From a virus: DNA of 64,000 nucleotides. Within the stretch, counting starts at the first letter, position 1. Every line of letters begins with the position of its first letter. Where the stretch lies: UHGV virus genome UHGV-0312702; one strand, written 5' to 3'. Below the pieces are notes generated by a model that did no database searches, was not told the DNA's origin, and worked only from the letters and a program-made list of their open reading frames with translations. Below are positions 40,406 to 63,761 of this stretch, one piece after another. The translations under genes and the position numbers were made by a program.

Positions 40406-40481
40406 TGGAGAATCCGAAGGGACTCGAACCCTTATAAACCTGTTTTGCAGACAGGCACATAGCCATTTCTGTCACGGATTC
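40406..40481 (-). tRNA. tRNA-Cys (anticodon GCA)
   Basis: manual fold: acceptor GAATCCG/CGGATTC, T-loop GGTTCGAGTCC, loop CTGCAAA, CCA encoded. Confidence 0.65.
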
Positions 40482-40485
40482 AAAT

Positions 40486-40578
40486 TGGAGGAAGATACCA
40501 GACTTGAACTGGTACACCGATTTCTCAGCTACTGGCAGTTTAGCAAACTGCTCCCTTACCTTTTAGGGTTAATCTTCC
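40486..40578 (-). tRNA. tRNA-Ser (anticodon GCU), long variable arm
   Basis: 93 nt; acceptor GGAAGAT/ATCTTCC; anticodon loop TTGCTAA. Confidence 0.65.
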
Positions 40579-40579
40579 A

Positions 40580-41314
40580 TTATTTCTGTAATGCGCTCTT
40601 CATTTCTGGTGTTGCAATAGTGTCAATCACACCAGTTTTACAAGCATCATCAAACCAGTCTGGTAAGATACCTGCTAAGAACCCATTGATATTCGTTTTA
40701 AGGTACTCTGCAATAAGGGCAGCTTCTTCTTCAATCATCTGCACAACTTCATCTGCATAAGCTGTAATCTTTGAGATACCTTCATTAATCTTACTAACAG
40801 CCTGATTAGCTAAATCAGAAACAGTATCAAGACCCTTATCAATAGCATCTTGTAAGTCACTTAATACATCATTAACGCTGTCTAGTGTATCATTAATAGC
40901 ATCAATAGCTTTTTGACCATACTCTGTAGCAACACCCATAATACCGCTGAATGGTGTACAACCAACTTGTTCTCCCGCTGCACCCATAACATTGGAATAT
41001 CCCTTTGCTACCTGCATACGTGATGAAAACTCGTCAATAGACTTTTGACCGTAGTCTGTTAGGGTCTTAGTAGTTGCTGTAGTGCTTGTCAGACTCGTTG
41101 TAAAGCTGTTTAGAAGGACTGTTGTAAGTCCAGCAGCAACAAGTTTTTCCTTCATTGCAGGGTCTGTTACAGAGCTAATAGAGCTTACAAGTGATGTAGA
41201 GGCAGCTACGGTTCCACCTAGAACTGCTGCACCAGTAATAAGGGGGTTAGAAAACCCTTTACCAGTTTTTAAGAGATTAAAAATCTCCTTACCTTGTCCT
41301 GTCATCTCTTTCAT
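40580..41314 (-). CDS. hypothetical protein inside tRNA cluster
   Basis: start set at ATG 41314 with RBS AAAGGTG; track start 41377 runs through tRNA-Phe. Confidence 0.45.
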   Translation of the reverse strand: MKEMTGQGKEIFNLLKTGKGFSNPLITGAAVLGGTVAASTSLVSSISSVTDPAMKEKLVAAGLTTVLLNSFTTSLTSTTATTKTLTDYGQKSIDEFSSRMQVAKGYSNVMGAAGEQVGCTPFSGIMGVATEYGQKAIDAINDTLDSVNDVLSDLQDAIDKGLDTVSDLANQAVSKINEGISKITAYADEVVQMIEEEAALIAEYLKTNINGFLAGILPDWFDDACKTGVIDTIATPEMKSALQK

Positions 41315-41330
41315 TAAGCACCTTTGAAAT

Positions 41331-41407
41331 TGGTAGTCCAGTGGGATTTGAACCCTCTTCTCATGTTTTTCAGACACGCGCTTTAACCATATAAGCTACT
41401 TGGACTA
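41331..41407 (-). tRNA. tRNA-Phe (anticodon GAA)
   Basis: acceptor TAGTCCA/TGGACTA; loop CTGAAAA; T-loop GGTTCAAATCC. Confidence 0.65.
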
Positions 41408-41412
41408 TAAAT

Positions 41413-41489
41413 TGGGGTGACCTACGGGATTTGAACCCGTATAGACCATGTTCACAGCATGGGTCATTACCATTTATGATAAGGCCACA
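41413..41489 (-). tRNA. tRNA-His (anticodon GUG)
   Basis: loop CTGTGAA, discriminator C. Confidence 0.6.
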
Positions 41490-41519
41490 TTTAAGGACTC
41501 TCGTAAGAACCCTTAGAAG

Positions 41520-41595
41520 TGGCAGCGGCATAAGGATTTGAACCTTAATAGGACAGCTTCAGAGACTGTTGCATTGCCAGTTATGCTATACCGCT
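41520..41595 (-). tRNA. tRNA-Gln (anticodon CUG)
   Basis: loop CTCTGAA, discriminator G. Confidence 0.6.
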
Positions 41596-41600
41596 AAATT

Positions 41601-41679
41601 TGGTACTCCATATCGGATTCGAACCGATACATAACACAGATTTTAAGTCTGGCCTCTCTGCCAATTGGAGTAATGGAGC
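41601..41679 (-). tRNA. tRNA with anticodon UAA (Leu codon UUA) but short variable loop
   Basis: loop CTTAAAA; T-arm ATCGG-TTCGAAT-CCGAT; discriminator A; no long variable arm. Confidence 0.45.
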
Positions 41680-41681
41680 AT

Positions 41682-41756
41682 TGGCGGGGGATGTTGGAAT
41701 TGAACCAACTTCTTCGATTTCAAAGACCGAGGTTTTAACCTTGTAAACTAATCCCC
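41682..41756 (-). tRNA. tRNA-Gln (anticodon UUG)
   Basis: loop CTTTGAA, discriminator G. Confidence 0.6.
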
Positions 41757-41765
41757 TTTAAATCT

Positions 41766-42323
41766 TTACTTTCTTAGTGGATGAATAAAGAATGCCAACA
41801 TAACTCTTTCCCTTGAGAATGCTCTTTCTTCTGGGACAACACTTTTAAGTTTCCACCCAACATAAATTCTCCAGTAAAATTGTTTACCAAAGACTTTAAT
41901 TGATGGGATAAAAGCAAATAATCCCCAAGCATTGCTGTTCCACATTAGGAGATAACCTGTCTGATTATCTTCAGGGTTAGAACTTACGTTGATATTACCT
42001 TTCCACTTAGTAACATCTTTTACATCTCTTCCTAACACATGGTAAGAGAAGTTATAAGCTTTGTTTCTCCAGAGCCATCCAACTCTCTGCATATAAACAC
42101 CGAGCTTACCAATCTTTCTAATCTTAGCCCATCGTTTGATATGACCTGCATCACCATCAATTGGGTTGTCATAAGTCTCCATCCATCTGAAACCAAAAGG
42201 CAGATGACCTTTCTTCTCACTGTAGAATGGGACTACGAAAGGTGCTAAGATAACTGCCAAGATTGCTGCAAATGGCTCTAACAAAGCTAAGAAAATCCAT
42301 GAAGCATACTTCAAATATCTCAT
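41766..42323 (-). CDS. membrane protein
   Basis: hydrophobic N-terminus WIFLALLEPFAAILAVILAPFVVPF. Confidence 0.5.
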   Translation of the reverse strand: MRYLKYASWIFLALLEPFAAILAVILAPFVVPFYSEKKGHLPFGFRWMETYDNPIDGDAGHIKRWAKIRKIGKLGVYMQRVGWLWRNKAYNFSYHVLGRDVKDVTKWKGNINVSSNPEDNQTGYLLMWNSNAWGLFAFIPSIKVFGKQFYWRIYVGWKLKSVVPEERAFSRERVMLAFFIHPLRK

Positions 42324-42562
42324 TGTCTAATCCTAGTAAGGAGGTAAACATTATTATTTGTTTCTGAGTTTTCTGGTAAAGCTGTCTCAAAATTGACGCT
42401 TTTAAATTGTCTCCCACCAAAGTAATGACCAATAAATTTTTGTACTTTTATTGGGTCACATTCCCAGCCAACTTTCAAGAAAATGTGGGTATCTATAGTG
42501 GGAACCCTTACAAACTCAATACTATTGGAATTTTCATGTTCAACGACGATTAATGTTTGCAT
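42320..42562 (-). CDS. hypothetical protein
   Basis: 80 aa coupled ORF. Confidence 0.35.
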   Translation of the reverse strand: MQTLIVVEHENSNSIEFVRVPTIDTHIFLKVGWECDPIKVQKFIGHYFGGRQFKSVNFETALPENSETNNNVYLLTRIRQ

Positions 42563-42580
42563 AAATCTCTCTTATTTATC

Positions 42581-42656
42581 TGGCGCAGGATAAGGGACTT
42601 GAACCCCTATTAACAGCTTCGTAGACTGTTGCTCTATCCATTTGAACTAATCCTGC
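42581..42656 (-). tRNA. tRNA-Arg (anticodon ACG)
   Basis: acceptor GCAGGAT/ATCCTGC; loop CTACGAA. Confidence 0.65.
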
Positions 42657-42661
42657 AAAAT

Positions 42662-42739
42662 TGGTGTTCCAAGACGGATTCGAACCGTCACTAGTACAAG
42701 GTTTGAGCTTGCATCCTCTGCCAATTGGGATACTGGAAC
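42662..42739 (-). tRNA. tRNA with anticodon CAA (Leu codon UUG) but short variable loop
   Basis: loop CTCAAAC; T-arm GACGG-TTCGAAT-CCGTC; discriminator A. Confidence 0.45.
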
Positions 42740-42740
42740 A

Positions 42741-42815
42741 TGGTACTCACTAAAGGACTTGAACCTTTTTCTTCATCTTGTAAGGGTGATGTTTTACCAT
42801 ATAAACTAAGCGAGT
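42741..42815 (-). tRNA. tRNA-Val (anticodon UAC)
   Basis: loop CTTACAA. Confidence 0.55.
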
Positions 42816-42911
42816 GTGAAAGAGGTCTGAAGTTGTGCCACTAACTCAACTCCGTGGAATTTGTTACGGTCTTCAGTTGACTCAAAGTGGTCTTTCACTT
42901 GACCTCTGAAT

Positions 42912-42987
42912 TGGTGCTCCCACAAGGATTCGAACCCTGATAAGTTGCTTACAAGGCAACCGTAATAGCCAATTATACGATAGGAGC
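42912..42987 (-). tRNA. tRNA-Thr (anticodon UGU)
   Basis: stem GTTGC/GCAAC, loop CTTGTAA. Confidence 0.65.
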
Positions 42988-42994
42988 ATTAATT

Positions 42995-43069
42995 TGGAGC
43001 ATCCAGAGGGAATCGAACCCTCAACCTCAGTTTGGAAGACTGTAATTTTCCCGTTTAAACTATGGATGC
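42995..43069 (-). tRNA. tRNA-Gly (anticodon UCC)
   Basis: acceptor GCATCCA/TGGATGC; loop CTTCCAA; discriminator U. Confidence 0.6.
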
Positions 43070-43075
43070 ACTAAT

Positions 43076-43151
43076 TGGTGGAGAAGCAGGGAATTGAACC
43101 CTGTACTTAAGTTTGCAAAACTTATGTTTTAACCATGTAAACTACATCCCC
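43076..43151 (-). tRNA. tRNA-Ala (anticodon UGC)
   Basis: G3:U70 wobble in acceptor stem; loop TTTGCAA. Confidence 0.6.
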
Positions 43152-43157
43152 AATGTT

Positions 43158-43233
43158 TGGTACAGGTGGAGGGAATTGAACCCATCGTCTTACTGATTAA
43201 GAGTCAGCCGCATAACCATTTTGCTACACCTGC
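43158..43233 (-). tRNA. tRNA-Lys (anticodon CUU)
   Basis: loop CTCTTAA. Confidence 0.55.
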
Positions 43234-43240
43234 ATTAATT

Positions 43241-43316
43241 TGGTACACCTAGAGAGATTCGAACTCACACTGAGCAGATTCTAAGTCTGCTGCCTCTACC
43301 AGTTGGGCTATAGGTG
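43241..43316 (-). tRNA. tRNA with anticodon UAG (Leu codon CUA) but short variable loop
   Basis: 6-bp anticodon stem AGCAGA/TCTGCT; loop CTTAGAA; discriminator A. Confidence 0.45.
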
Positions 43317-43563
43317 CATTAAATCTTTTTAGAGAACTTCTAAGAACCTAAGCAACAAGGTTCCACAACAAGCTGTAATAACCTTAGAAGCCCTCTAAAA
43401 AGACCTAAAAAGGTCTTTGCATAGTCTTGTTTAATCCGGTGACTAGAACCTTTGGAGAGCTTGATATTATCTCTTCTCCGTGACACCTACTAGGTGCTTT
43501 ACTGTGCGTGTACGACAATACACGAGGGATACCAAAGCAACATCCGAATGAAGCTTGGCTTTA

Positions 43564-43653
43564 AATCTTATTAGGCGGTAAGTAAAGGAGTCGAACCCTC
43601 ACCGTATCTCTACAGTGGCAACTGTTTTCAAGACAGTTTGGCTACCATTAGCC
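43564..43653 (-). tRNA. tRNA-Ser (anticodon UGA), long variable arm
   Basis: acceptor GGTAGGT/ACTTACC; loop CTTGAAA; discriminator G; CC but no terminal A encoded. Confidence 0.55.
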
Positions 43654-43676
43654 GCTACCTACCCCTAATAAGACTT

Positions 43677-43759
43677 TGGCATGGGACGGAGGAGTTGAAC
43701 CCCTTTGAAACGGTTTTGGAGGCCGTTGCTCATGCCTTAGAGTCTTAACATCGTCCCAC
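43677..43759 (-). tRNA. atypical tRNA-like gene, candidate tRNA-Trp (anticodon CCA)
   Basis: acceptor GTGGGAC/GTCCCAT; loop CTCCAAA; about 7 extra nt in D-arm region. Confidence 0.4.
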
Positions 43760-43901
43760 ACTATAATTCGAAACTTACCGTATTATCTCAACACTGTAAA
43801 GCCCCTTCTCAGATTATTTACATGTTCTGGAAAACATGAGATACAGACCACCTCCCTACAGGAAGACCCGCTTAGGTCGTCTAAGTAATCTGCTAACTAA
43901 T

Positions 43902-43978
43902 TGGCACACCCTACAGGATTCGAACCTGTAACTAACGATTTAGAAGACCGTTGCTCTATCCAATTGAACTAAGGGTGC
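43902..43978 (-). tRNA. tRNA-Arg (anticodon UCU)
   Basis: acceptor GCACCCT/AGGGTGT; loop CTTCTAA. Confidence 0.65.
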
Positions 43979-44271
43979 ATTAATCTTTAAAGACTCTCTT
44001 AGAAAGCCCTTAAAGATGCCCACCTTATTAATCATACCGTGGGCTAGTACGCCAAATTCTTTGATGAGGGATTGGAAGACCTCACTGGTGTTTAGCCTAT
44101 CAAGCTACTGCCAGAAAAACATTGTCGTTTGCATTTATTTTAAATTTGCAAAATAGACGCTACGCAACGAAAACTATTCAGAATATGTACAACAAATTTC
44201 CCCACATTGTGTTACGTCTAACGCTCATGTATTGGTGTTTGAATTATACATATTATGAATTATTTTTAGTT

Positions 44272-44300
44272 ACTATAAAGTAGTCACATCTCAATGTCAA
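44272..44300 (-). promoter_or_regulatory. strong sigma70-like promoter inside tRNA cluster
   Basis: minus strand TTGACA (44295-44300), 17-nt spacer, TATAGT (44272-44277). Confidence 0.55.
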
Positions 44301-44315
44301 CAACTTTATTGAAAT

Positions 44316-44390
44316 TGGTTGTAGGTGAGGGTATCGAACCCTCTTCTAACGGTTATCAGCCGTTTGCATTACCATTTATGCTAACCCACA
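44316..44390 (-). tRNA. tRNA-Ile (anticodon GAU)
   Basis: loop CTGATAA. Confidence 0.6.
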
Positions 44391-44392
44391 AT

Positions 44393-44469
44393 TGGAGGTT
44401 CAGGTGGGAATCGAACCCACATTCATAGGGCTTATGAAACCCCTGCATTACCTTATCTGCGACTGAACC
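44393..44469 (-). tRNA. tRNA-Met (anticodon CAU)
   Basis: loop TTCATAA; G-C-rich anticodon stem. Confidence 0.55.
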
Positions 44470-44473
44470 ATAT

Positions 44474-44549
44474 TGGTAGAAGTGGAGGGATTCGAACCCA
44501 TCGCCTGTCAGATTAAAAGTCTGCCGCATCACCATTCTGCTACACTTCC
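44474..44549 (-). tRNA. tRNA-Lys (anticodon UUU)
   Basis: loop CTTTTAA. Confidence 0.55.
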
Positions 44550-44698
44550 ATTAAATTATCTTTGTAGATAAGCTACCCAGACTTGCTTAAGGTCTGTAGC
44601 GATGTGCCTTGTTGGGTTTAAATCTAGAATTTACCCTTTCACCCTTTGTGGTCGCATACTCACAGGTAAGCTTAATAGCTCACCTACAAAGATAATTA

Positions 44699-44830
44699 CC
44701 AGACCGTTGTTTATCATCTTAAGTGCTACCATTACACCAACTCGACATCTGCCGAGTGAAGGAATCGAACCTTCGCCTTTTCTTTACCGGAGAAATAGAT
44801 TGTTTAAGTTTTGCTGTAAACGGTCTTCTG
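44699..44830 (-). ncRNA. candidate Y-RNA-like ncRNA E1 with tRNA-like module
   Basis: 5' box CAGAAGACC; terminal helix AGACCGTT/AACGGTCT; internal T-arm GAAGG-TTCGATT-CCTTC, acceptor-like hairpin ACTCGGC-AGAT-GTCGAGT, D-arm-like TGGTGTAATGGTAGCAC. Confidence 0.4.
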
Positions 44831-44843
44831 TAAATTTGTTGAG

Positions 44844-44917
44844 CCAGACCAAGTTTTAAATTTTCAAAATTAAATTGGCTTGAAATTTCATACATTCTTG
44901 CTGAATTTGGTCTTCTG
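44844..44917 (-). ncRNA. candidate Y-RNA-like ncRNA E2
   Basis: same 5' box; terminal helix AGACCAA/TTGGTCT (covaries with E1/E3). Confidence 0.35.
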
Positions 44918-45004
44918 CTCCTTTAAAGAATACTCGCAAGAACTCTTTAAGGGAGGGGCTAAATAGCCCTCTCAAAACATCATTTTGAAATACTTATTAT
45001 AATT

Positions 45005-45082
45005 TGGCGGTTACGAAGGGATTTGAACCCTCATCATCTCCCGTGACAGGGGAGTATTTTAACCAGATTAAACTACATAACC
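45005..45082 (-). tRNA. tRNA-Asp (anticodon GUC)
   Basis: stem CTCCC/GGGAG, loop CTGTCAC, discriminator G. Confidence 0.65.
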
Positions 45083-45087
45083 TTTAT

Positions 45088-45175
45088 TGGTGTGCCGTGT
45101 AGGAGTCGAACCTACCGAGTCTCAATGACAAGGGATTTACAGTCCCCACCGCTACCATCTACGGGATAACGACAC
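45088..45175 (-). tRNA. tRNA-Tyr (anticodon GUA), long variable arm
   Basis: 88 nt; loop CTGTAAA. Confidence 0.6.
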
Positions 45176-45184
45176 ATTTTAATT

Positions 45185-45261
45185 TGGCGGTTAGTCAGGG
45201 ATTCGAACCCTGTGCCATTCGCTTAACAGGCGACCGCACATACCTTATGTGCTTCCTAACC
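45185..45261 (-). tRNA. tRNA-Asn (anticodon GUU)
   Basis: loop CTGTTAA. Confidence 0.6.
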
Positions 45262-45272
45262 TTAATACATTG

Positions 45273-45331
45273 CCAGACCGTGTTTTTCTTTTATCCGCAA
45301 AAAGTAGTTTGTTGCTGAATACGGTCTTCTG
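45273..45331 (-). ncRNA. candidate Y-RNA-like ncRNA E3
   Basis: 5' box; terminal helix AGACCGT/ACGGTCT; begins about 6 nt after a tRNA 3' end. Confidence 0.35.
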
Positions 45332-45337
45332 CAAAAT

Positions 45338-45413
45338 TGGAGGCGGGTGCAGGAGTCGAACCTGCCGATACCATGCTAATGAGACATGTGAGACGCCCTT
45401 TCTCTATACCCGC
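45338..45413 (-). tRNA. tRNA-Met (anticodon CAU), second copy
   Basis: loop CTCATTA; possible 1:72 mismatch. Confidence 0.55.
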
Positions 45414-45425
45414 AATTCTTAATGA

Positions 45426-45498
45426 CCAGACCAAATCTCTTCTTTGTCCGATTGAATGTCAGATGAATAAGATTAAATTTGCTGTAATTGGTCTTCTG
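45426..45498 (-). ncRNA. candidate Y-RNA-like ncRNA E4
   Basis: 5' box; terminal helix AGACCAA/TTGGTCT. Confidence 0.35.
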
Positions 45499-45505
45499 TC
45501 AAAAC

Positions 45506-45580
45506 TGGTGTCGTAGACAGGATTCGAACCTGCGAGCAACTGATTGAAGGTCAGGTGGCTAACCATTTGCCTTCTACGAC
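45506..45580 (-). tRNA. tRNA-Glu (anticodon UUC)
   Basis: acceptor GTCGTAG/CTACGAC; loop CCTTCAA. Confidence 0.6.
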
Positions 45581-45581
45581 A

Positions 45582-45938
45582 TTAAACCATTGTAATTCCA
45601 CTATGAACCTCTCTGTGGCAATTAGCGCATAGCAAAACACATTTATCAAGTTCTTTTTTAACCTTTTCCCAAGATGCACCCATAAGTTTTGATGGTGTAT
45701 TCTCTTTTTCGTTTGGGTTAAGGTGATGCCATTCTAAAGCATTTTTACATTTATTATAGCCACAAATTATGCAACTATCGCCATAAAGCTTATATGCTTT
45801 CTCCCTATTGGCATCCTCTCTAAGTTTTGTCCTTAATGCACAACATTTTAGACAATTTACTCTATTACCGGCGTTACCATTCTTATGAATGCTATGTTCA
45901 GTTAAACCATGAACTGGACATTCTTTTAAAAATCTCAT
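45582..45938 (-). CDS. HNH endonuclease
   Basis: EWHHLNP and CANCHREVH motifs plus Cys pairs; start at ATG 45938 with RBS AAGGGG; track start 46016 runs through tRNA-Pro. Confidence 0.7.
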   Translation of the reverse strand: MRFLKECPVHGLTEHSIHKNGNAGNRVNCLKCCALRTKLREDANREKAYKLYGDSCIICGYNKCKNALEWHHLNPNEKENTPSKLMGASWEKVKKELDKCVLLCANCHREVHSGITMV

Positions 45939-45955
45939 AGTAACCCCTTTAAATT

Positions 45956-46032
45956 TGGTCTCTGTTGGAGGACTTGAACCTCCGGCCTTACCGCCCCAAA
46001 CGGAACGCTCTACCAAGCTGAGCTAAACAGAG
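45956..46032 (-). tRNA. tRNA-Pro (anticodon UGG)
   Basis: acceptor CTCTGTT/AACAGAG; loop TTTGGGG. Confidence 0.6.
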
Positions 46033-46197: not shown

Positions 46198-47613
46198 TTA
46201 CCAGATGTAACGGTCAATCATTACTGCTTTGAGCATTACGCTGATTGGGTCAAACTTCTCACCACCAAGCAGGGCTTTTAAAGTGGCTGGGGAGAACCCT
46301 GATACCATTGCTACACCGTTATCCTTAACAGACACTTCGCAAGTACCACTACGGTTTGCTAAGTACCAGAATACCAGTTGTGGCATTTCGTATCCAGCTT
46401 TTTTGTACTTACTACGAATTGCTTCAAAGTTTGTACGACCATTTGCACCATCAACCTGATTGAACTCCATATCAGAGAAGATGATAAGCTTACTTGGCAT
46501 ATCTTTCTGAGTCAAGTTGTTTCTCTTGCCTGTCTCAAGAATACGGTCAAAAGCTGCTTGTAAGTTGGTTGAACCATATTCAACATGACGCATTACCTGA
46601 CGGTGACGGTTTCGTAAATCACCACTCAGTTCGATGAAATGAGGGTTTGTTGAATAAACCATTAACTCGTTCTTAAAGCAACCTGTATTGCGTTCTGCTA
46701 CATACAAGGCAAGTGATACACCAATATCGAGGGCAGTAATTGAGCCAAGATTCACCCAAGACATTGAGCTTGAAACATCAGTCATACACAAGATGTTTTC
46801 ACCTTCTGCCATCCAGTTTGGTAGTGCTTTCCACTGCTCATTAGCAACATCTGCATTACCATACTTGATAGATTTAATCACATCGTATGGATAAACAGCA
46901 CCAGCATTAATCTTAGTCTCACCCTTTGATAAGGACTCAACGTAAGCTTTGTAGCGTTCTCCATCTTTACGGTTAAATAATTTTTGGTAACGTGCAGCAG
47001 CAAGTGAAGGAATCTTACTGTAGTCAATCTTACCAAACTCATTAGCAGAGATTTTTTGTTCAACTGTATCAGATAGTGCAGACAGCAGTGTGCGGTACTC
47101 TTTCTCGCTCAAGTTTGCAAACTTACAGAAACGTTTTACAAACTGTTTGTGACGTGGTTTTACTCGTGGTAACCACTTAGCTGCTAAACCTGCTGTTGCA
47201 GGGTCTAGTAAAGCTGCTTCTAAATGTTTGAAGGCATCTGTCTCAAAACGAGTACCTACAAAGATTTTGAAGTCATCAAAGCGACCAAGCTCTGCAATCT
47301 TATCCATAATGCGAAGAACCTGTGTAGGCTCTAAAACTTTATCTTCAATCGCTTGAAGTAAAACAGTTCGGAAAGCCTTACGCTCACCCATACCTTCTCG
47401 TACATCTCGCATATGCAGTAAAATACGAACTGCAACATCAACATCCTCATGCAAAGCTTTGTAGAACAAGTCTGGTAAGATTTCTACATTGCTACGGCTA
47501 GAACCAGCAGCTTTGTAAAAGTCTACAAGAGCAGACATTGATGAAGTATGGTTTACAGCACCATTTTCAGTTCGACCTGCATGAAGGTGCGCATGTTTAA
47601 ATAATTCGCTCAT
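46198..47613 (-). CDS. Ro60/Rsr-like protein (TROVE-like N-terminus + vWA domain)
   Basis: MIDAS DVSSSM plus LGSI, GSTN...IIFSDMEF segments resembling Ro60 vWA as recalled from memory. Confidence 0.55.
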   Translation of the reverse strand: MSELFKHAHLHAGRTENGAVNHTSSMSALVDFYKAAGSSRSNVEILPDLFYKALHEDVDVAVRILLHMRDVREGMGERKAFRTVLLQAIEDKVLEPTQVLRIMDKIAELGRFDDFKIFVGTRFETDAFKHLEAALLDPATAGLAAKWLPRVKPRHKQFVKRFCKFANLSEKEYRTLLSALSDTVEQKISANEFGKIDYSKIPSLAAARYQKLFNRKDGERYKAYVESLSKGETKINAGAVYPYDVIKSIKYGNADVANEQWKALPNWMAEGENILCMTDVSSSMSWVNLGSITALDIGVSLALYVAERNTGCFKNELMVYSTNPHFIELSGDLRNRHRQVMRHVEYGSTNLQAAFDRILETGKRNNLTQKDMPSKLIIFSDMEFNQVDGANGRTNFEAIRSKYKKAGYEMPQLVFWYLANRSGTCEVSVKDNGVAMVSGFSPATLKALLGGEKFDPISVMLKAVMIDRYIW

Positions 47614-48066: not shown

Positions 48067-48294
48067 TGCTATGCCTCTTATAAGACCTCTTAAAAGGCTT
48101 TTAAGATAAAAGATAGATATCCAGAAAGATATCTGTTTAAATAGCCTTTTTAGAGGAACCTTTTAAGTTATCTTCTAAGTATTTATAAGCCTATACCTTG
48201 TCAAGCCCTTTGTCAACAACTTTTTTAACTTGCAATAGTTCTTGACTTGTTGTATGGATTACTGTACCATCTTACTTAAAGCTGTAGGTCTGCC

Positions 48295-55521: not shown

Positions 55522-55532
55522 AATATCTTAAG

Positions 55533-55560
55533 AGCCTCCTTAATCGGGGGCTTTTTAATT
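55533..55560 (+). terminator. intrinsic terminator ending the plus-strand block
   Basis: AGCCTCC-ttaatc-GGGGGCT followed by TTTTTAATTTTT. Confidence 0.65.
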
Positions 55561-57115
55561 TTTATAAAATTTTATCGGTTGTCCCAACCTCTGGGTCACC
55601 ATCATATGTGAACAAAATATCTACCCTCTTAATAACCTTCTTAATCTTACTCTCTATATAGTTATATAGTACTATATAGTATCTTAGTACCTATCTAGTG
55701 GTTTTAATAGCCCCTCTGTATAGCCCTTCTAAACACTCTTCTAACAAGCCTTTTTAACAACCTATACAATCACCTTAACCACCTCTCTATACACTCTTAG
55801 AAGCTCCTATACACATCTTAATCTCTATGTCAGCTATGATACCCTCTATAGGTGTTCACTAGGTATTACTAAGCCTCTATATAGACTGTTTTAACAAACT
55901 TAACAGGAATATCTTCACAGACCTTATCTCACAAGGTCTAACACGGTACTAACAAGGTATCTTATAAGCCTGTTTCTACCTGTATTTTTAAAAGACTGTC
56001 TAGGTAATTATTCAGAATTTTAAAATTTTTATAAAATAGGACTATCAAGTCATTTTTTAGGGTCTTTGAAGGAACTGAAAAATATCTGTCTAGGATGTAT
56101 ATCTGCTTGGTAGCCCTTAACATCCCTGTAACATCCCCTTTGCAGAATTTTAAAATATCCTTAACAATCTCTTAACAGCTCTTACATCTTCTTAACATCT
56201 CTTCAGAGGTCTTAACAGATTCTTAACAGAACTAACAAGGATGTAACAAGTTCTTAACAGTCGATACATAGGCTTTACAGAGTCTTAACAGATGACTAAC
56301 AAGAGCTAACAAGTTAATTTTTAAGAGTTATTTTGTTAAGATAATTAACAAGTTTCTAACAAGTGTTTAATCTTTTTAACAAGCTATTAACATGGTCACT
56401 ACTCTTTTCTTATCGTTCCCTCTACCTTCTTAGTGATTCTCTAAACATACCTCTTAAAAGCTCTCTATAGCTACTTATAAGCCCTTTTAAGCCTCTTCCT
56501 AGTAACTACACCCCAACTATACAGACACCTATTTATAGAGCTTTACAGGAGCTTTTAAGGCTATGCCAAAGGTTCTTACAAGTCTTTTACGTGGTCTTAA
56601 CAGAGATTTAACAAGGGGCTAACAAGTTGCTAACAAGTGCCTTAAAAGCATAACTATGTAGGGATTGTTAAGAAATTGTTAAGAAAATGTTAAGGGGGCT
56701 AGCATTTACGTAACTTTATAGCCTCTTTTACGTAACTTTTAAGCTACTTCAGAGTAACTTTATAGCCCCTATAACATACTTTTTAGTGACTATCAAGGGG
56801 ATTGTTTAACTATTCACAAGATACTAACGAGATAATAAAGCTCATAACCTTATAAGATTCTTTTAAGCCTCTATAAAGCCCTGTAAAGAGCTTTTAAGGG
56901 TGAGTTAATGCAATCCCTTAAGTTAGATTGATAAGGCTGTTATAGCGCTTTATAGAGCGTTTAAACGGTTGCCCTTCCCTTTCGGGTTATGGGCTTATAT
57001 TTAAGTTGATTTGATAAGGGGCTATAGAGTAAGCTATAGAGTTATTACTTTTAAGGTATGAGATAGATTCTATCGAATCAGTGGGAAAGATTCTGGGAAG
57101 GGATTGGATAGACGT
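55561..57115. repeat. 1.6 kb noncoding iteron-rich region
   Basis: no ORF of 60 aa or more; dense short repeats (TCTTAACAG, CTAACAAG, TTGTTAAG inverted copies, TATAGCC/TTAAGCC families), densest approx 56150-56340 and 56590-56700. Confidence 0.6.
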
Positions 57116-57170
57116 AAAAAAGCCCCTATAAGAAGGAGCTTTTCAGGTATCTGGGGCTATTTAGCCCCGT
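57115..57170 (-). terminator. terminator hairpins after the small-gene array
   Basis: GGGGCT-AAAT-AGCCCC and downstream GGGGCT + TTTTTT on minus strand. Confidence 0.5.
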
Positions 57171-57178
57171 TGCGTCGA

Positions 57179-59866: not shown

Positions 59867-59951
59867 TTTTGAATCTCCAGTTTAGGATTTAGTGGTAAAG
59901 CTCTTTATCTGGGGCTTAAGATATCAACTTTTAAGCCCCCTGTAAAGTACT
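59867..59951 (-). promoter_or_regulatory. conserved upstream cassette, type A
   Basis: GGGGCTTAA-aagttgatatc-TTAAGCCCC hairpin + CCACTAAATCCTAAACTGGAGAT. Confidence 0.55.
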
Positions 59952-60200
59952 TTATTTAACTTTCTTTGAGAAAATTAGTTTAACTGCAACCGTAGGAATC
60001 TCGTCAGCGCTTGTAACCAGCATTACTTTTTGGGTAACCAACTTATAACCGTTCTTTGCAGCATATGCGGTAAAACGGTTAACATTGTAACTATAAGTTT
60101 TTGGTGTGCTATCTGGCATGTGGTAAAGAAAAGGTTTACCCAAATTTTCTTCTTGTGTCAACAGTCGGCAGGTATCAGGGATATTGAAATAGTTCATCAT
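59952..60200 (-). CDS. hypothetical small protein
   Basis: 82 aa behind cassette. Confidence 0.5.
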   Translation of the reverse strand: MMNYFNIPDTCRLLTQEENLGKPFLYHMPDSTPKTYSYNVNRFTAYAAKNGYKLVTQKVMLVTSADEIPTVAVKLIFSKKVK

Positions 60201-60292
60201 TTTTGAATCTCCAGTTTAGGATTTAGTGGTAAAGCTCTTTATCTGGGGCTTAAGATATCAACTTTTAAGCCCCCTGTAAAGTACTTTATCAG
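60201..60292 (-). promoter_or_regulatory. conserved upstream cassette, type A
   Basis: identical to 59867-59951 element. Confidence 0.55.
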
Positions 60293-60490
60293 TTATTTTT
60301 TGACAACTTTTAAAACTGCAAGATAACCTAAGCAATAAGAATCACCGAAGAGAGTTCTGCCCATGAAAGAATCCTCTTTGATATCCTTTGCAGTGACAGT
60401 TTTTTCTACGCCGTGGGAAAGGACTACATCACCGACTTTGATGTCTTTGATGTGTGTTGTTTCAATGGTTAAGCCGTTAATAATAGCCAT
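60293..60490 (-). CDS. hypothetical small protein
   Basis: 65 aa behind cassette. Confidence 0.5.
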   Translation of the reverse strand: MAIINGLTIETTHIKDIKVGDVVLSHGVEKTVTAKDIKEDSFMGRTLFGDSYCLGYLAVLKVVKK

Positions 60491-60593
60491 TTTAAAATCT
60501 CCTAGTTTAAGGACTTTATTTAGTGGGGAAGGTCATTCCCTCCCCGTTGATGTGTAATTTAGCCTATCTAAAAATCAGTGTCAATAATTTTTT
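60491..60593 (-). promoter_or_regulatory. conserved upstream cassette, type B, with extension
   Basis: type B hairpin plus GATGTGTAATTTAGCCTATCTAAAAATCAGTGTCAA block repeated at 61542-61630. Confidence 0.55.
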
Positions 60594-60998
60594 TTAGAGT
60601 TCTGCGTAAATTGCATCACAGATATTACGGAAGTCATGATTTGACAAATTACGTTGTAACCAAGTGGCGAAGAAATCAGCGATTGCAAAATTAGCATCAT
60701 ACTCGACAGATAGCCACACTTTAACAGCAAATCGGAACATTTTCAAGTCTAACTCTTTATTCATTACCTTAGATTTGCCTAACATGTCGGACATCTCATA
60801 TTGTGCACCGTCTAGCGTGATACCTGCTGCAACGTCAGACAATGAGTTTTTTACGTTTTCAACGTCTAAGATAACACTTTGAATCTTCCCGATAATGTTG
60901 TGCAATGTTTCATCCGGTGCTGATGATGTAATAACATTAATCCGGTTAACGGTCAAACGTGCTTTTAAAATTGATAACTCACGGTTATTAATAGCCAT
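60594..60998 (-). CDS. hypothetical protein
   Basis: 134 aa behind cassette. Confidence 0.5.
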   Translation of the reverse strand: MAINNRELSILKARLTVNRINVITSSAPDETLHNIIGKIQSVILDVENVKNSLSDVAAGITLDGAQYEMSDMLGKSKVMNKELDLKMFRFAVKVWLSVEYDANFAIADFFATWLQRNLSNHDFRNICDAIYAEL

Positions 60999-61084
60999 TT
61001 TTTAGTTCTCCAATTTAGGATTTAGTGGTAAAGCTCTTTATCTGGGGCTTACTTTATCGAACTATAAGCCCCTTGTAAAGTACT
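60999..61084 (-). promoter_or_regulatory. conserved upstream cassette, type A variant
   Basis: stem GGGGCTTA/TAAGCCCC kept, loop sequence differs. Confidence 0.5.
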
Positions 61085-61357
61085 TTATACTAAATGCAGC
61101 TTTTTACCTTTTACTATGATGTAACTAGATGCGCTATTGCTGCATACATCTTGGTAAATTCTGCGCAAACGCCCTTCATAGTGTACTTTCCAACTGGTTG
61201 GAATCTTTTTCCCGTATCCTGTAGCAGTTTTTTGGAGTCCTGCAACTTGCCAATCCAAAATGTGCTGTTCAGCTTGTAAATCCTCGAAGTGCATTACACC
61301 GTTCACATAGTGGCGTAGGGTTACGTTTAAAGTGCGACCGTTGTTAGTAGTGTACAT
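61085..61357 (-). CDS. hypothetical protein
   Basis: start set at ATG 61357 (MYTTNNGR) behind RBS AAGAG. Confidence 0.45.
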   Translation of the reverse strand: MYTTNNGRTLNVTLRHYVNGVMHFEDLQAEQHILDWQVAGLQKTATGYGKKIPTSWKVHYEGRLRRIYQDVCSNSASSYIIVKGKKLHLV

Positions 61358-61382
61358 TTTAAAAGCTCTTAGTTTAAGGGTT

Positions 61383-61541
61383 TTATTTTGACAGTTCACT
61401 AATTAAGACATCAAAGATTATATCATTATCTGCTACAGTTGCAACACCAGTGATATAATCAATTTCTAGGATAACAACAACTTTCGTACATAAACCGTCA
61501 TCTATATCATTCCAGACAACTTTATCACCTGCACAAAACAT
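61383..61541 (-). CDS. small hypothetical protein (52 aa)
   Basis: ORF below track cutoff, preceded by canonical cassette and GGAGAT RBS. Confidence 0.45.
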   Translation of the reverse strand: MFCAGDKVVWNDIDDGLCTKVVVILEIDYITGVATVADNDIIFDVLISELSK

Positions 61542-61630
61542 TTTCAGAATCTCCAGTTTAGGACTTTATTTAGTGGGGAAGGTCATTCCCTCCCCGTTGA
61601 TGTGTAATTTAGCCTATCTAAAAATCAGTG
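61542..61630 (-). promoter_or_regulatory. conserved upstream cassette, type B, with extension
   Basis: near-identical to 60491-60593. Confidence 0.55.
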
Positions 61631-61963
61631 TCAAACACTTTGTTTTCGTTTGCTCAATTCTTGAACAATTACAGCGTAGTAGTCTTTTAAGTCACTGATA
61701 TTTAAAGCATTTATTAGTGAATTATAATCATCGACTAACTGAAAATCATCTTTGAAGATGTCACTTATCTGATAGGTGTTAGCTTTGTATCTGAAGCTCA
61801 TTTCTAACCGTTTTATTTGTTCATCACTTAAACGCTCCAGAAAACTCATTACAAGGCTATTATTGACCTGTTGCGTGATTGCCTTACTTGCCAGATTGTA
61901 GGCGCTGTACGCCTTATATAGCGCCATAATAGCAATGATTGCAGTGACTCCCATCATTAACAT
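61631..61963 (-). CDS. small membrane protein
   Basis: N-terminal TM MLMMGVTAIIAIMALY; coupled to upstream gene, no cassette. Confidence 0.5.
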   Translation of the reverse strand: MLMMGVTAIIAIMALYKAYSAYNLASKAITQQVNNSLVMSFLERLSDEQIKRLEMSFRYKANTYQISDIFKDDFQLVDDYNSLINALNISDLKDYYAVIVQELSKRKQSV

Positions 61964-62253
61964 GGTGTTACCTCTTTACGTGACACTTTGCCATTTACAG
62001 ATATCTCATAAGATTCTAATAAATCACTTTTAGACTTTACTGGACTTTTAAAAGTATCATCATAAATATTAACTTGCAATACAGGTTTTTTATACTCCCT
62101 GCAACTGTTCCATAAACAAATCACTACACGACGGCCTTTTATTTTGCCGTGTAACCATTCCATAACATCATGACTATTCCTTGATGTTTCAATGAAATCA
62201 ATTTTATTAAGTAACTTGCTTAGATTTTCACGAACTTTATTTGATAATTTCAT
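61957..62253 (-). CDS. hypothetical small protein
   Basis: 98 aa behind cassette. Confidence 0.5.
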   Translation of the reverse strand: MKLSNKVRENLSKLLNKIDFIETSRNSHDVMEWLHGKIKGRRVVICLWNSCREYKKPVLQVNIYDDTFKSPVKSKSDLLESYEISVNGKVSRKEVTPC

Positions 62254-62346
62254 TTTAGAATCTCCTAGTTTAAGGGCTTTATTTTGATAAATCTTTTTAT
62301 CTGGGGCTATCCTACCAGCTTGATAACCCCGTGTAAAGAAATCTAT
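62254..62346 (-). promoter_or_regulatory. conserved upstream cassette, type A variant
   Basis: GGGGTTATCAAGCTGGTAGGATAGCCCC hairpin variant + RBS. Confidence 0.5.
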
Positions 62347-62859
62347 TTAGTTCTTAAAGATATTCATCACTGAGTCTTTCAACGATTCCAAACGTTCTAA
62401 TACTTCAGTTTCTGCGTCTGAATTGCTCACCTCTTCTTTTAGTCTATCCTCTAAATCATCACCGTCACGATAGCACCAATCGAAAGCATAACCAAGATAA
62501 AAACTTTCTAAAACCGTGTTACCGTTTGCATCCACAACTTTCGCGGCAAGGTTGTACTCTGAAGCCTCTAAATCTCTTTCTAGTTCTTTCTGTAAGCTGG
62601 TGTAAGCCTCTTTTGATGGATTTTCCCGACCTTGTTTTGCATAGTCACTAGAAAGCTGTTTAAGGCTGTAATGTAAAGGGATTGCATATTTAAACTCATT
62701 ATGCTGATGGTTAGGATTTTTAATAGTTACACCGCCTTGATGGTCATCTGTAAACTGCCAATTATCAAGGTTATGGCTTGCTTCAAAGCAATTAACAGCC
62801 TCATAGATGATAGAAAATTTTTCTTTTACAACTTCAAAGGTAGCGTCTACAGTTTTCAT
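62347..62859 (-). CDS. hypothetical protein
   Basis: 170 aa behind cassette. Confidence 0.5.
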   Translation of the reverse strand: MKTVDATFEVVKEKFSIIYEAVNCFEASHNLDNWQFTDDHQGGVTIKNPNHQHNEFKYAIPLHYSLKQLSSDYAKQGRENPSKEAYTSLQKELERDLEASEYNLAAKVVDANGNTVLESFYLGYAFDWCYRDGDDLEDRLKEEVSNSDAETEVLERLESLKDSVMNIFKN

Positions 62860-62947
62860 TTTTGAATCTCCAGTTTAGGATTTAGTGGTAAAGCTCTTTA
62901 TCTGGGGCTTAAGATATCAACTTTTAAGCCCCCTGTAAAGTACTTTA
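62860..62947 (-). promoter_or_regulatory. conserved upstream cassette, type A
   Basis: identical to 59867-59951 element. Confidence 0.55.
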
Positions 62948-63205
62948 TCAGATTAAATTGCCAGTTAATGATAAGTGCATTTTATAGCCTTTTTTGGTAA
63001 AAACGTTCACTTTACCTAGTGTTTTTACACCTTTAAAAAGGTTGTTTGAACTGCGTTTTAAAGTTAACTGCTTATCAACCTTCACGCCCCACCTTACAGC
63101 AGATTGTTTCCCGTTGTCAATCACTTTACCGCATAACTTTTTAGCCATGTTGCGAGCGTCATCACGAGTCTTTGCAGTAATTACAACGTTTTTGATAATA
63201 GCCAT
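62948..63205 (-). CDS. hypothetical small basic protein
   Basis: start set at ATG 63205 (MAIIKN) behind cassette RBS. Confidence 0.45.
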   Translation of the reverse strand: MAIIKNVVITAKTRDDARNMAKKLCGKVIDNGKQSAVRWGVKVDKQLTLKRSSNNLFKGVKTLGKVNVFTKKGYKMHLSLTGNLI

Positions 63206-63291
63206 TTTTAAGTTCTCCAATTTAGGATTGAGTGGTAAAGTTCTTTATCTGGGGCTTACTTTATCGAACTATAAGCCCCTTGTAAAGTACT
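63206..63291 (-). promoter_or_regulatory. conserved upstream cassette, type A variant
   Basis: same variant as 60999-61084. Confidence 0.5.
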
Positions 63292-63672
63292 TTATTTAAT
63301 TTTGAAAATTGTTACATAACCATCACTACCGATTATTTGAGACACTCCAGCTTTTTCTACTTGATAGCCCATATTTTCAAGATGATAAACAGCATCATCA
63401 TAACCATATGCGCCGCCTTGATAACGTCTCTTATCACATCTTACTAATACCTTTCCACGTCCAGCAAGTGCATTCAGTACAGCTTTTTCACTTGAGAGTG
63501 TGCCATCTAACATGGTTGCCGTGTAATGGTTGATTCTATTCCCGTTAATATCATACTTAAAATTGAATGCGTGAACAACAATCAATTTGCCGTTAAATTT
63601 TTCATCAAGTGACTTCTCCAGTGCGTTGCGGAAGTTGTCTTTGTTGATGAATTTTGGTGCACGATAAGCCAT
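63292..63672 (-). CDS. hypothetical protein
   Basis: 126 aa behind cassette. Confidence 0.5.
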   Translation of the reverse strand: MAYRAPKFINKDNFRNALEKSLDEKFNGKLIVVHAFNFKYDINGNRINHYTATMLDGTLSSEKAVLNALAGRGKVLVRCDKRRYQGGAYGYDDAVYHLENMGYQVEKAGVSQIIGSDGYVTIFKIK

Positions 63673-63761
63673 TTTGAATCTCCTAGTTTAAGGGTTAATT
63701 TAGTAAAGCTCTTTATCTGGGGCTTAAGATATCAGCTTTTAAGCCCCCTGTAAAGTACTTT
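63673..63761 (-). promoter_or_regulatory. conserved upstream cassette, type A
   Basis: GGGGCTTAAAAGCTGATATCTTAAGCCCC hairpin + RBS. Confidence 0.55.

Follow-up and report, generated by a model that had tools for sequence, protein, structure and literature searches.

What does a phage keep between two transfer RNA (tRNA) genes when the stretch between them is neither a short junction nor a tRNA itself? The question is raised by the UHGV virus genome UHGV-0312702, of which a stretch of 64,000 nucleotides (nt), here called the window, was analysed. The window belongs to a Felix O1-like myovirus, a group of phages widely used for typing and biocontrol of Salmonella and Escherichia coli and represented by hundreds of public genomes. 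A total of 25 tRNA genes, all on the minus strand, were located by ARAGORN at 40406–46032. The spacer in question occupies 43318–43573 (256 nt) and is flanked by tRNA-Leu(UAG) (43241–43317) and tRNA-Ser(UGA) (43574–43663), which ARAGORN also places on the minus strand; the order of transcription is tRNA-Ser, spacer, tRNA-Leu. Other tRNA junctions of the same cluster span only 2–10 nt. A preliminary description of this DNA had put the gap at 247 bp ending at 43563, which the flanking tRNAs correct to 256 bp, and had left out that the tRNAs, and hence the relevant RNA, lie on the minus strand. It suggested that the gap may encode a small RNA or processing signals. That suggestion is partly supported. 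A functional RNA-level element, rather than a neutral spacer, is indicated by the conservation of its core at the level of tRNAs, by stem changes that preserve pairing and by wobble pairs that are valid only on the tRNA strand; in addition, its longest helix, He, fits a processing signal. From sequence comparison we put about even confidence in the reading that the tRNA operon has, in this spacer, a functional non-coding RNA element encoded on the minus strand, which would yield a processing helix and a small stable RNA.

The 2.1-kb stretch around the spacer matches 360 phage records at 90–99% identity, mostly Felixounavirus of Escherichia and Salmonella. The spacer itself matches 254 phage records from Felixounavirus, Mooglevirus and Suspvirus, with identities from 100% down to about 79%, and 253 of these cover at least 80% of it. 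In every record inspected its two neighbours are tRNA-Ser(tga) and tRNA-Leu(tag). Further copies were found in 20 metagenome stretches and in 27 IMG/VR contigs, which are about 87 kb in length. A divergent metagenomic lineage (L077 and L081), located via its Ro60-like protein (62–63% amino-acid identity), carries the spacer between the same two tRNAs. No RNA feature is annotated at the spacer in the inspected records, whose listed rows hold nothing, spurious hypothetical proteins, the neighbouring tRNAs or, in one case, 'tRNA-OTHER'.

Conservation and base pairing of the spacer

In minus-strand 5' to 3' order, the spacer RNA is made up of the following elements.

43560–43573, minus strand: 5' leader UAAUAAGAUUUAAA, 14 nt, A/U-rich, directly after tRNA-Ser(UGA), nearly invariant in the alignments
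43531–43559, minus strand: hairpin Ha, hypervariable in sequence, with at least five unrelated allelic versions and a stem-loop always present
43507–43524, minus strand: hairpin Hb (CGUGUAU-UGUC-GUACACG), nearly invariant
43418–43500, minus strand: core of about 83 nt, comprising hairpins c1, c2 and c3 and invariant single-stranded linkers (CAC and AAAGGUUC)
43483–43497, minus strand: hairpin c1 (GCACCU-AGU-AGGUGU), its six pairs formed without exception in sets of 34 and 21 distinct sequences
43454–43479, minus strand: hairpin c2 (GGAGA...UCUCC, with an inner GAU-AAU-AUC hairpin), stems invariant
43422–43445, minus strand: hairpin c3 (UAGUC and GACUA around a 14-nt loop, ACCGGAUUAAACAA)
43399–43418, minus strand: hairpin Hd (AAAGACC-UUUUUA-GGUCUUU)
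43320–43407, minus strand: helix He, long (26 bp) and with an insert at its apex, ending 3 nt before the first base of tRNA-Leu(UAG)
43351–43358, minus strand: apical motif UUGUUGCU of He, unchanged throughout the alignments (L077 and L081 among them), within apical sequence that is 19–62% conserved

Two of these hairpins had been recognized earlier, exactly as they are found in the DNA: AAGACC (43400–43405) and GGTCTT (43412–43417) around a taaaaa loop, corresponding to Hd, and CGTGTA (43507–43512) and TACACG (43519–43524) around a cgacaa loop, corresponding to Hb. They are real, but they are minor pieces of a larger architecture. The largest structure of the spacer had been overlooked; this is a 26-bp inverted repeat (43319–43344/43383–43408), the second-longest local inverted repeat in the window. 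Perfect 6-bp hairpins with loops of 3–8 nt occur in five registers in the gap, against a mean of 0.46 in dinucleotide-preserving shuffles (P ~0.003). The minus-strand spacer folds at −73.6 kcal/mol, compared with −57.0 ± 4.3 kcal/mol for shuffles (z = −3.85), and the plus strand gives z = −3.10.

Conservation is sharply divided along the spacer. Compared with two Mooglevirus genomes, 16-nt segments within 43414–43493 are 0.81–1.00 identical, mostly 0.94–1.00, whereas those at 43366–43381 and 43526–43557 reach only 0.19–0.50 and the flanks overall 0.19–0.75. Against the more distant L077, the core of the window is 92% identical and hairpin Hb 94%, values within the range of five tRNAs (92–100%). 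The terminase gene is 79% and the Ro60-like gene 68% identical in the same comparison, and the arms of He (64–74%) and hairpin Ha (59%) are the remaining entries. The core thus evolves like a tRNA, while its flanks evolve like coding DNA or faster. Variation within the core is scarce, and the variable positions, apart from the few stem changes described below, are in loops.

The strand on which this structure is selected can be read from its irregular pairs. Pairs that are not Watson-Crick are without exception G-U when read on the minus strand; read on the plus strand they would be C-A mismatches, which argues that the selected structure is an RNA of the tRNA sense. Hb, c1, c2 and Hd show six one-sided changes between them, and each leaves a standard minus-strand pair intact. 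Those of Hb are two point changes (U-A to U-G and A-U to G-U) that keep pairing on the minus-strand RNA only; in c1 the closing G-U becomes A-U in several sequences, and in c2 one G-C to G-U change accompanies variation that is otherwise confined to the 3-nt apical loop (A/G, U/C). Hairpin c3 shows a compensatory change from U-A to C-G in three distinct alignment sequences, including L077 and L081. Ha is conserved in another manner. Its identity to Mooglevirus is 0.38–0.50, and 21 of 21 distinct variants fold to a hairpin at the same place (−7 to −16 kcal/mol); a U-rich tail follows it in some alleles only.

Helix He has changed most and kept its pairing. In 37 sequences, 98.4% of cells are paired, against 34–66% in controls with slid partners. 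Two pairs have changed on both sides (U-A to G-C in nine sequences), and ten vary by wobble, all as G-U on the minus strand. In the window He has 26 pairs, of which 20 are contiguous Watson-Crick or G-U pairs, and it folds alone with z = −6.5. In L077 and L081 its arms have diverged as noted above, yet RNAfold gives a 23-bp uninterrupted helix through further compensatory changes, with a G-C pair where Mooglevirus has a U-C mismatch. Over these alignments, the pairing of He has strong support and that of c3, Hd and Ha moderate support, whereas c1, c2 and Hb have weak support, from invariance plus wobble changes.

Hd and He share sequence. The 3' arm of Hd, GGUCUUU, doubles as the base of He, and the two pairings are mutually exclusive, which fits two successive states of one RNA. 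The loop of Hd is variable in sequence and length (UUUUUA, AAUUUA, GUUUA, AAUA). In its 5' arm, which lies outside He, all three kinds of change are wobble-compatible, and thus Hd seems to matter as well. The 7-bp hairpin contains three G-C pairs only and is followed by UUUUU in most genomes. In L077 and L081 a G interrupts this U run (UUUGUAG), and that G forms a pair with a C of the 3' arm of He. Since this change restores a pair of He, the conserved feature is the pairing of He and not the U tract.

Two other pairings were considered and discarded. The alternative UAGUC/GAUUA preferred by RNAfold is broken by the compensatory change of c3 in L077 and L081, and an anti-terminator pairing AAAGGUU/GACCUUU, part of the minimum-energy fold, is lost in Mooglevirus.

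Proposed transcription and processing of the spacer RNA

A scan for promoters and terminators found no minus-strand site inside the spacer. A sigma-70 promoter within it was rejected on that scan, and the candidates seen by eye have a poor -10 element and variable spacing. A near-consensus promoter is located upstream of the spacer at 44300–44272; it is annotated as a promoter in phage ASO1A and matches P45, TTGACA(17)TATAGT, of the Felix O1 genome paper (PMC3185647). With no minus-strand promoter in the spacer and one upstream of it, co-transcription with the tRNAs is the simplest assumption.

Under that assumption, maturation of the precursor could proceed in a few steps. The 5' leader contains AG|AUUU (AAG|AUUUAA), an A/U-rich single-stranded stretch of the type cut by ribonuclease E (RNase E), which prefers a U two nt downstream in single-stranded RNA (PMC5222698). 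From this fit, a first cut would be made in the leader a few nt after tRNA-Ser, probably by RNase E. At the other end, He has the length that characterizes sites of RNase III, about two turns (20 bp or more) of near-perfect duplex RNA within a precursor, and is a probable candidate for an RNase III processing site; RNase III of E. coli is reported to take part in the maturation of T4 tRNAs (PMC4810235). Host RNase III would cut He, which abuts tRNA-Leu, and RNase P would then trim the short remaining leader of tRNA-Leu. Once He had been cut, the shared GGUCUUU could re-pair as Hd, and the released RNA would start with Ha and end with Hd, bounds that we take for a stable design. The product would be a small stable RNA of about 150–170 nt, or about 250 nt if He were left uncut. 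Because the unpaired nucleotides of the core are invariant, the core, that is Hb, c1, c2, c3 and the invariant single-stranded linkers and loops, may be recognized sequence-specifically by a partner.

Several observations weigh against this reading. The core has a single covarying pair, which probably arose once in evolution, and its other helices are supported by invariance and wobble changes only. The words CTTTTTAGAGG and CTTAGAAG recur in other non-coding regions of the genome, and part of He could reflect a DNA-level repeat family. Phage phiEa21-4 and four further relatives (L078, L079, L082 and L083) keep the tRNA cluster and the Ro60-like gene without the spacer, which is therefore dispensable for the tRNA cluster as such. 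Searches for a partner or target were negative on both sides: no similarity that would suggest host mimicry was found in 5,426 complete E. coli genomes at E values up to 10, and exact complementary 10–12-mers that could mark antisense targets in the 64-kb window occur at chance level. A literature search returned no transcriptome, small-RNA, transcript-end or nuclease data for Felix O1-like phages.

The limits of the element were also sought with R1, a covariance model built on the core. It found nothing in Erwinia phage phiEa21-4, in Yersinia P778-like phages, in the T4 tRNA region or in five more distant phages carrying a Ro60-like gene. The P778-like phages keep the flanking gene order, yet without the spacer.

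The most serious rival, unlikely in our view but a real possibility, is that the spacer acts in cis only. It would fold so that the neighbouring tRNAs are cut correctly and in order, and would then be degraded without a stable or trans-acting product. The position of He against the 5' end of tRNA-Leu and its maintenance by compensation are what such a role predicts, as are the conservation of Ha as a shape only and the relatives that manage without the spacer. Similar leader hairpins before other tRNAs here, in T4 and in phiEa21-4 point the same way. In the window, hairpins abut the 5' ends of tRNA-Arg(tct) (43983–44017), tRNA-Lys(ttt) (44554–44697) and tRNA-His (41494–41514). The last of these, AAGGGUUCUU-loop-GAGAGUCCU at 41494–41514 on the minus strand, stands directly 5' of tRNA-His. 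It recurs almost letter for letter before a tRNA-Leu of phiEa21-4 (L076, 24258–24278) and also before tRNA-Gln, the first tRNA of the T4 cluster (L084, 3542–3564). Across the three phages its form is AAGGGUUCUU-loop-GAGAG(U/C)C(C/U)U, and a similar word is found at 56566–56590. Given this recurrence in the window, phiEa21-4 and T4, leader hairpins before tRNA blocks are shared by these phage clusters, and He looks like an elongated relative of them. What a role in cis leaves unexplained is the tRNA-level invariance of about 83 nt, loops and linkers included, while Ha and He drift in sequence; other junctions of the same cluster need 2–10 nt only.

Further details of the leader hairpins were noted. 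The tRNA-Arg(tct) hairpin (43979–44017, minus strand) has 17 bp, and that of tRNA-Lys(ttt) (44550–44697, minus strand) has 22-nt arms that are 100 nt apart; the bases of both share AUCUUU...AAAGAU with He. The leader element before tRNA-His is conserved and shared between unrelated phage groups.

The same invariant core allows a bolder proposal, which we regard as doubtful and advance only tentatively. The ultra-conserved core might be released as a trans-acting phage small RNA whose invariant loops and linkers (ACCGGAUUAAACAA, AAAGGUUC and UUGUUGCU) bind a particular factor of host or phage, such as an RNA-processing or tRNA-targeting defence protein or, by a non-canonical contact, the Ro60-like particle of the phage itself. 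If true, phage tRNA clusters would conceal a new RNA family with a regulatory or counter-defence role.

Weaker candidates and neighbouring features

It is improbable that the spacer is conserved as DNA, whether as palindromic protein-binding sites, as a weak promoter for the tRNA-Leu block (TTGCTT-N17/18-CTAAAA/TAAAAA, ending 8–9 bp before tRNA-Leu) or as a target or landing site for homing endonucleases. Hb, c1 and Hd are palindromic in DNA too, related A/T-rich palindromic words recur in other non-coding regions, and the invariant apical TTGTTGCT resembles the GTTGTTGACA context of the strong promoters of this phage at 44300 and near 48215. In Citrobacter phage Michonne, an HNH gene is inserted exactly at the junction of the spacer and tRNA-Leu(tag) (L010, 235–687). 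The pattern of changes argues otherwise, as the non-Watson-Crick pairs of He and the one-sided changes of the small stems are all G-U on the minus strand and would be C-A mismatches in a DNA palindrome. The promoter variant must also contend with the null minus-strand scan, and its putative -10 element lacks a conserved final T and differs in spacing between genera.

A Ro60-like gene is located at the head of the tRNA cluster (46198–47613, minus strand, 471 amino acids), 2.6 kb upstream of the spacer and on the same strand. The domains DUF2828 and DUF7788 are present in its product, which is a member of PHROG 850, 'RNA-binding protein'. Sequence searches of the protein against the Protein Data Bank (PDB) found nothing. 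Its AlphaFold model (predicted local distance difference test, pLDDT, 86; predicted template modelling score, pTM, 0.87) has full-length Foldseek matches to the Ro60 structures 2i91, 1yvp and 9nep and to the Ro60 of Thermus phage phiLo, 9l5y (E values of 2e-8 to 9e-7, template modelling scores of 0.53–0.65). By this model the product is homologous in structure to the Ro60 autoantigen (TROVE ring and vWA). Ro60-like homologs are common in large phages with many tRNAs.

We consider it highly improbable that the spacer is a second Y-like RNA bound by this protein. The idea has some appeal. One or two Y RNAs are usually encoded close to a Ro60 gene (PMC4201824, PMC12135203), the spacer has such a gene in its vicinity, and its long helix and large loops would suit a Y RNA. 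The Y RNAs of bacteria and phages have a GNCGAA(N)G motif and, as a rule, a tRNA-like module as well (PMC4201824, PMC12135203), and the Ro60-binding form of the motif, GNCGAA(N0-1)G, is located near the 5' end of the Y RNA (PMC4201824). A regular-expression search of both strands of 39.9–48.8 kb for GNCGAA(N0-1)G returned a single match at 44770–44777 and none in the spacer, and the spacer core contains no T-arm or D-arm module. Four relatives and five more distant phages also have a Ro60-like gene without the spacer. Thus the spacer was rejected as a Y RNA, and the sole motif match falls in a better, YrlA-like candidate elsewhere:

about 44690–44810, minus strand: candidate YrlA-type Y RNA in the gap between tRNA-Asp and tRNA-Lys(ttt), containing GGCGAAGG (GNCGAA(N)G)

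In this candidate the motif is followed by a T arm (GAAGG-UUCGAUU-CCUUC), a closed, acceptor-like hairpin of 7 bp (ACUCGGC-AGAU-GUCGAGU) and a hairpin that resembles a D arm (GGUGU-AAUGGUA-GCACU). Its only match in Rfam is a partial one to tRNA, at 22 bits. By its sequence features it is likely to be the Y RNA partner of the Ro60-like protein.

The remaining proposals were examined by scans of the spacer for known families, coding and terminators. The preliminary description had seen neither a tRNA nor an open reading frame (ORF) here, and the gap indeed has no tRNA and no conserved ORF. No tRNA was found in 43318–43573 by ARAGORN in default, relaxed (-ps80) and intron-aware runs or by the Rfam tRNA model at E values up to 10; the mitochondrial setting of ARAGORN gave one spurious mitochondrial tRNA (mtRNA) call within the long hairpin. 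The Rfam/Infernal scan that it had suggested was carried out three times with Rfam 15, including a permissive scan of 301 nt, and no family, from riboswitches and ribozymes to small RNAs, transfer-messenger RNA, 6S and Y RNA, reached its gathering threshold. The best match was the plant MIR473 precursor (30 bits against a threshold of 52), and all others were weaker; such sub-threshold matches to plant microRNA precursors are at chance level and reflect the shape of a long hairpin. The mechanical ORFs of the minus strand are 37 and 48 amino acids long. Indels of 1, 2, 4 and 5 nt across relatives fall in both of them, no start codon is conserved, and the few core substitutions show no third-position bias. 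Between genera the Hd loop differs by 1 or 2 nt and the linker between Hb and c1 by 1–7 nt, and both lie within these ORFs. The coding reading was rejected on the broken frames and the lack of a conserved start. Hd as a terminator or attenuator was rejected likewise, as it fails a consensus terminator scan, its U tract is broken in L077 and L081 and its 3' arm is shared with the longer He. A decayed tRNA remnant, a small protein gene or an attenuator that ends at Hd is therefore hardly credible, even with the position in a tRNA array, the short ORFs and the UUUUU after Hd in most genomes, since a remnant would decay whereas the core is as conserved as live tRNAs and nothing tRNA-like was detected, the frames are broken by 1- and 2-nt indels, and the change that interrupts the U run restores a pair of He.

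No paralog of the spacer was found in the window by an nhmmer profile, which gave weak matches to A/T-rich hairpin words only.

Other features of the cluster were recorded in passing. An extra tRNA at 45509–45580 (minus strand), unreported by ARAGORN, scores 55 bits with Rfam. The tRNA-Ser(tga) gene (43574–43663, minus strand) ends in ...ACCGCC followed by U and does not encode CCA, whereas nearly all other tRNAs of the cluster do. Beyond it, a tRNA-like sequence at about 43680–43759 (minus strand) was missed by ARAGORN and reaches only 23 bits in Rfam, against the tRNA-Sec model. Inspected by eye, it shows an acceptor stem of 7 bp, a G discriminator, CCA and a T arm with UUCAACU; its anticodon loop reads CCA (Trp) if a C-A mismatch closes the stem, and otherwise has 9 nt. 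It is 84–91% conserved in Mooglevirus. The genes for tRNA-Leu-tag (43241–43317), tRNA-Ile (44316–44390) and tRNA-Arg-tct (43902–43978) are 53–56% identical to those of momo or Sf13, while their neighbours are 99–100% identical between the same close relatives; by these comparisons whole tRNA genes appear to be swapped as cassettes among close relatives. Homing endonuclease genes invade the cluster, and several relatives have extra endonuclease genes near the spacer. The HNH ORF of the window itself is at 45582–46016 (minus strand), between a tRNA and tRNA-Pro. A 28-nt direct repeat, TTGCTGTAAACGGTCTTCTGTAAATTTG, is present in four copies of 68–86% identity in gaps of the upstream half of the cluster:

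44811–44838: first copy of the 28-nt direct repeat
44898–44925: second copy
45312–45339: third copy
45479–45506: fourth copy

Non-coding repeats are found elsewhere in the window as well. A region of about 1.6 kb at 55522–57178 is dense in short words (TCTTAACAG, CTAACAAG, CTTTTAAG and CTTTATAG) and long inverted repeats, and resembles an origin or a divergent early control region. At 48067–48230 (minus strand), tandem TTGACA boxes are located in the leader of an operon that starts with the DUF5681 and Ro60-like genes; the same leader contains a long hairpin (48086–48102/48140–48156) built from words of He (CUCUAAAAAG and CUUAGAAG). A hairpin of about 55 nt (TAAAGCTCTTTATCTGGGGCTTAA ... TTAAGCCCCCTGTAAAGTACTTTA) occurs at least six times over 59896–63761, and its copies are probably the 57-bp repeats noted in the paper on the Felix O1 genome (PMC3185647).

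Comparison with known RNA systems

A stretch that is conserved like a tRNA, yet is not a tRNA, marks an unrecognised function in the translation or RNA-processing toolkit of these phages. The R1 model would allow the element to be annotated, and through the 26-bp He the cutting of long phage tRNA arrays can be tested directly. Four kinds of known RNA come close enough to the spacer to be compared with it.

Intrinsic terminators and the 3' hairpins of small RNAs resemble Hd in the combination of a hairpin and UUUUU in most genomes. They differ from it in that Hd has three G-C pairs, an interrupted U run in L077 and L081, and a competitor in He.

The Y RNAs (YrlA/YrlB, and Yrl1/2 of phiLo) are similar in that the spacer, too, is a structured non-coding phage RNA near a Ro60-type gene and amid tRNA-related sequence. 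They have the GNCGAA(N)G motif and the T/D-arm module, and the spacer has neither.

Helices cut by RNase III in polycistronic precursors of stable RNAs (the T4 tRNA precursor, ribosomal RNA operons, T7 early RNA) are, like He, long near-perfect duplexes (23–26 bp in He) beside a mature end. He differs from them by its conserved apical motif UUGUUGCU, which such sites do not need.

By position, the closest analogs are the T4 RNAs rnaC (species 1) and rnaD (species 2), non-tRNA RNAs of 119–139 nt that are encoded within a phage tRNA cluster, on the tRNA strand and next to a homing endonuclease gene; the spacer is likewise non-tRNA sequence within a phage tRNA cluster on the tRNA strand. T4 rnaC is structured (fold z = −4.6), and neither rnaC nor rnaD is in Rfam. 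To our knowledge, the function of rnaC and rnaD has never been established. A search of the T4 tRNA region with the core model (cmsearch, filters off) gave a best score of 7.3 bits (E = 0.2), off rnaC and rnaD, and no relationship in sequence or structure was detected between these RNAs and the core. Furthermore, rnaC has a tRNA-like T-arm (GGGUUCGAAUCCCGG) and the spacer core has none, and accumulation is annotated for the T4 RNAs, whereas for the spacer it is predicted. If the spacer does give rise to a stable RNA, it would join rnaC and rnaD as a second, experimentally tractable example. Taken together, the spacer fits best among the non-tRNA RNAs and processing helices embedded in phage tRNA clusters, as a new and clade-restricted member of that class.

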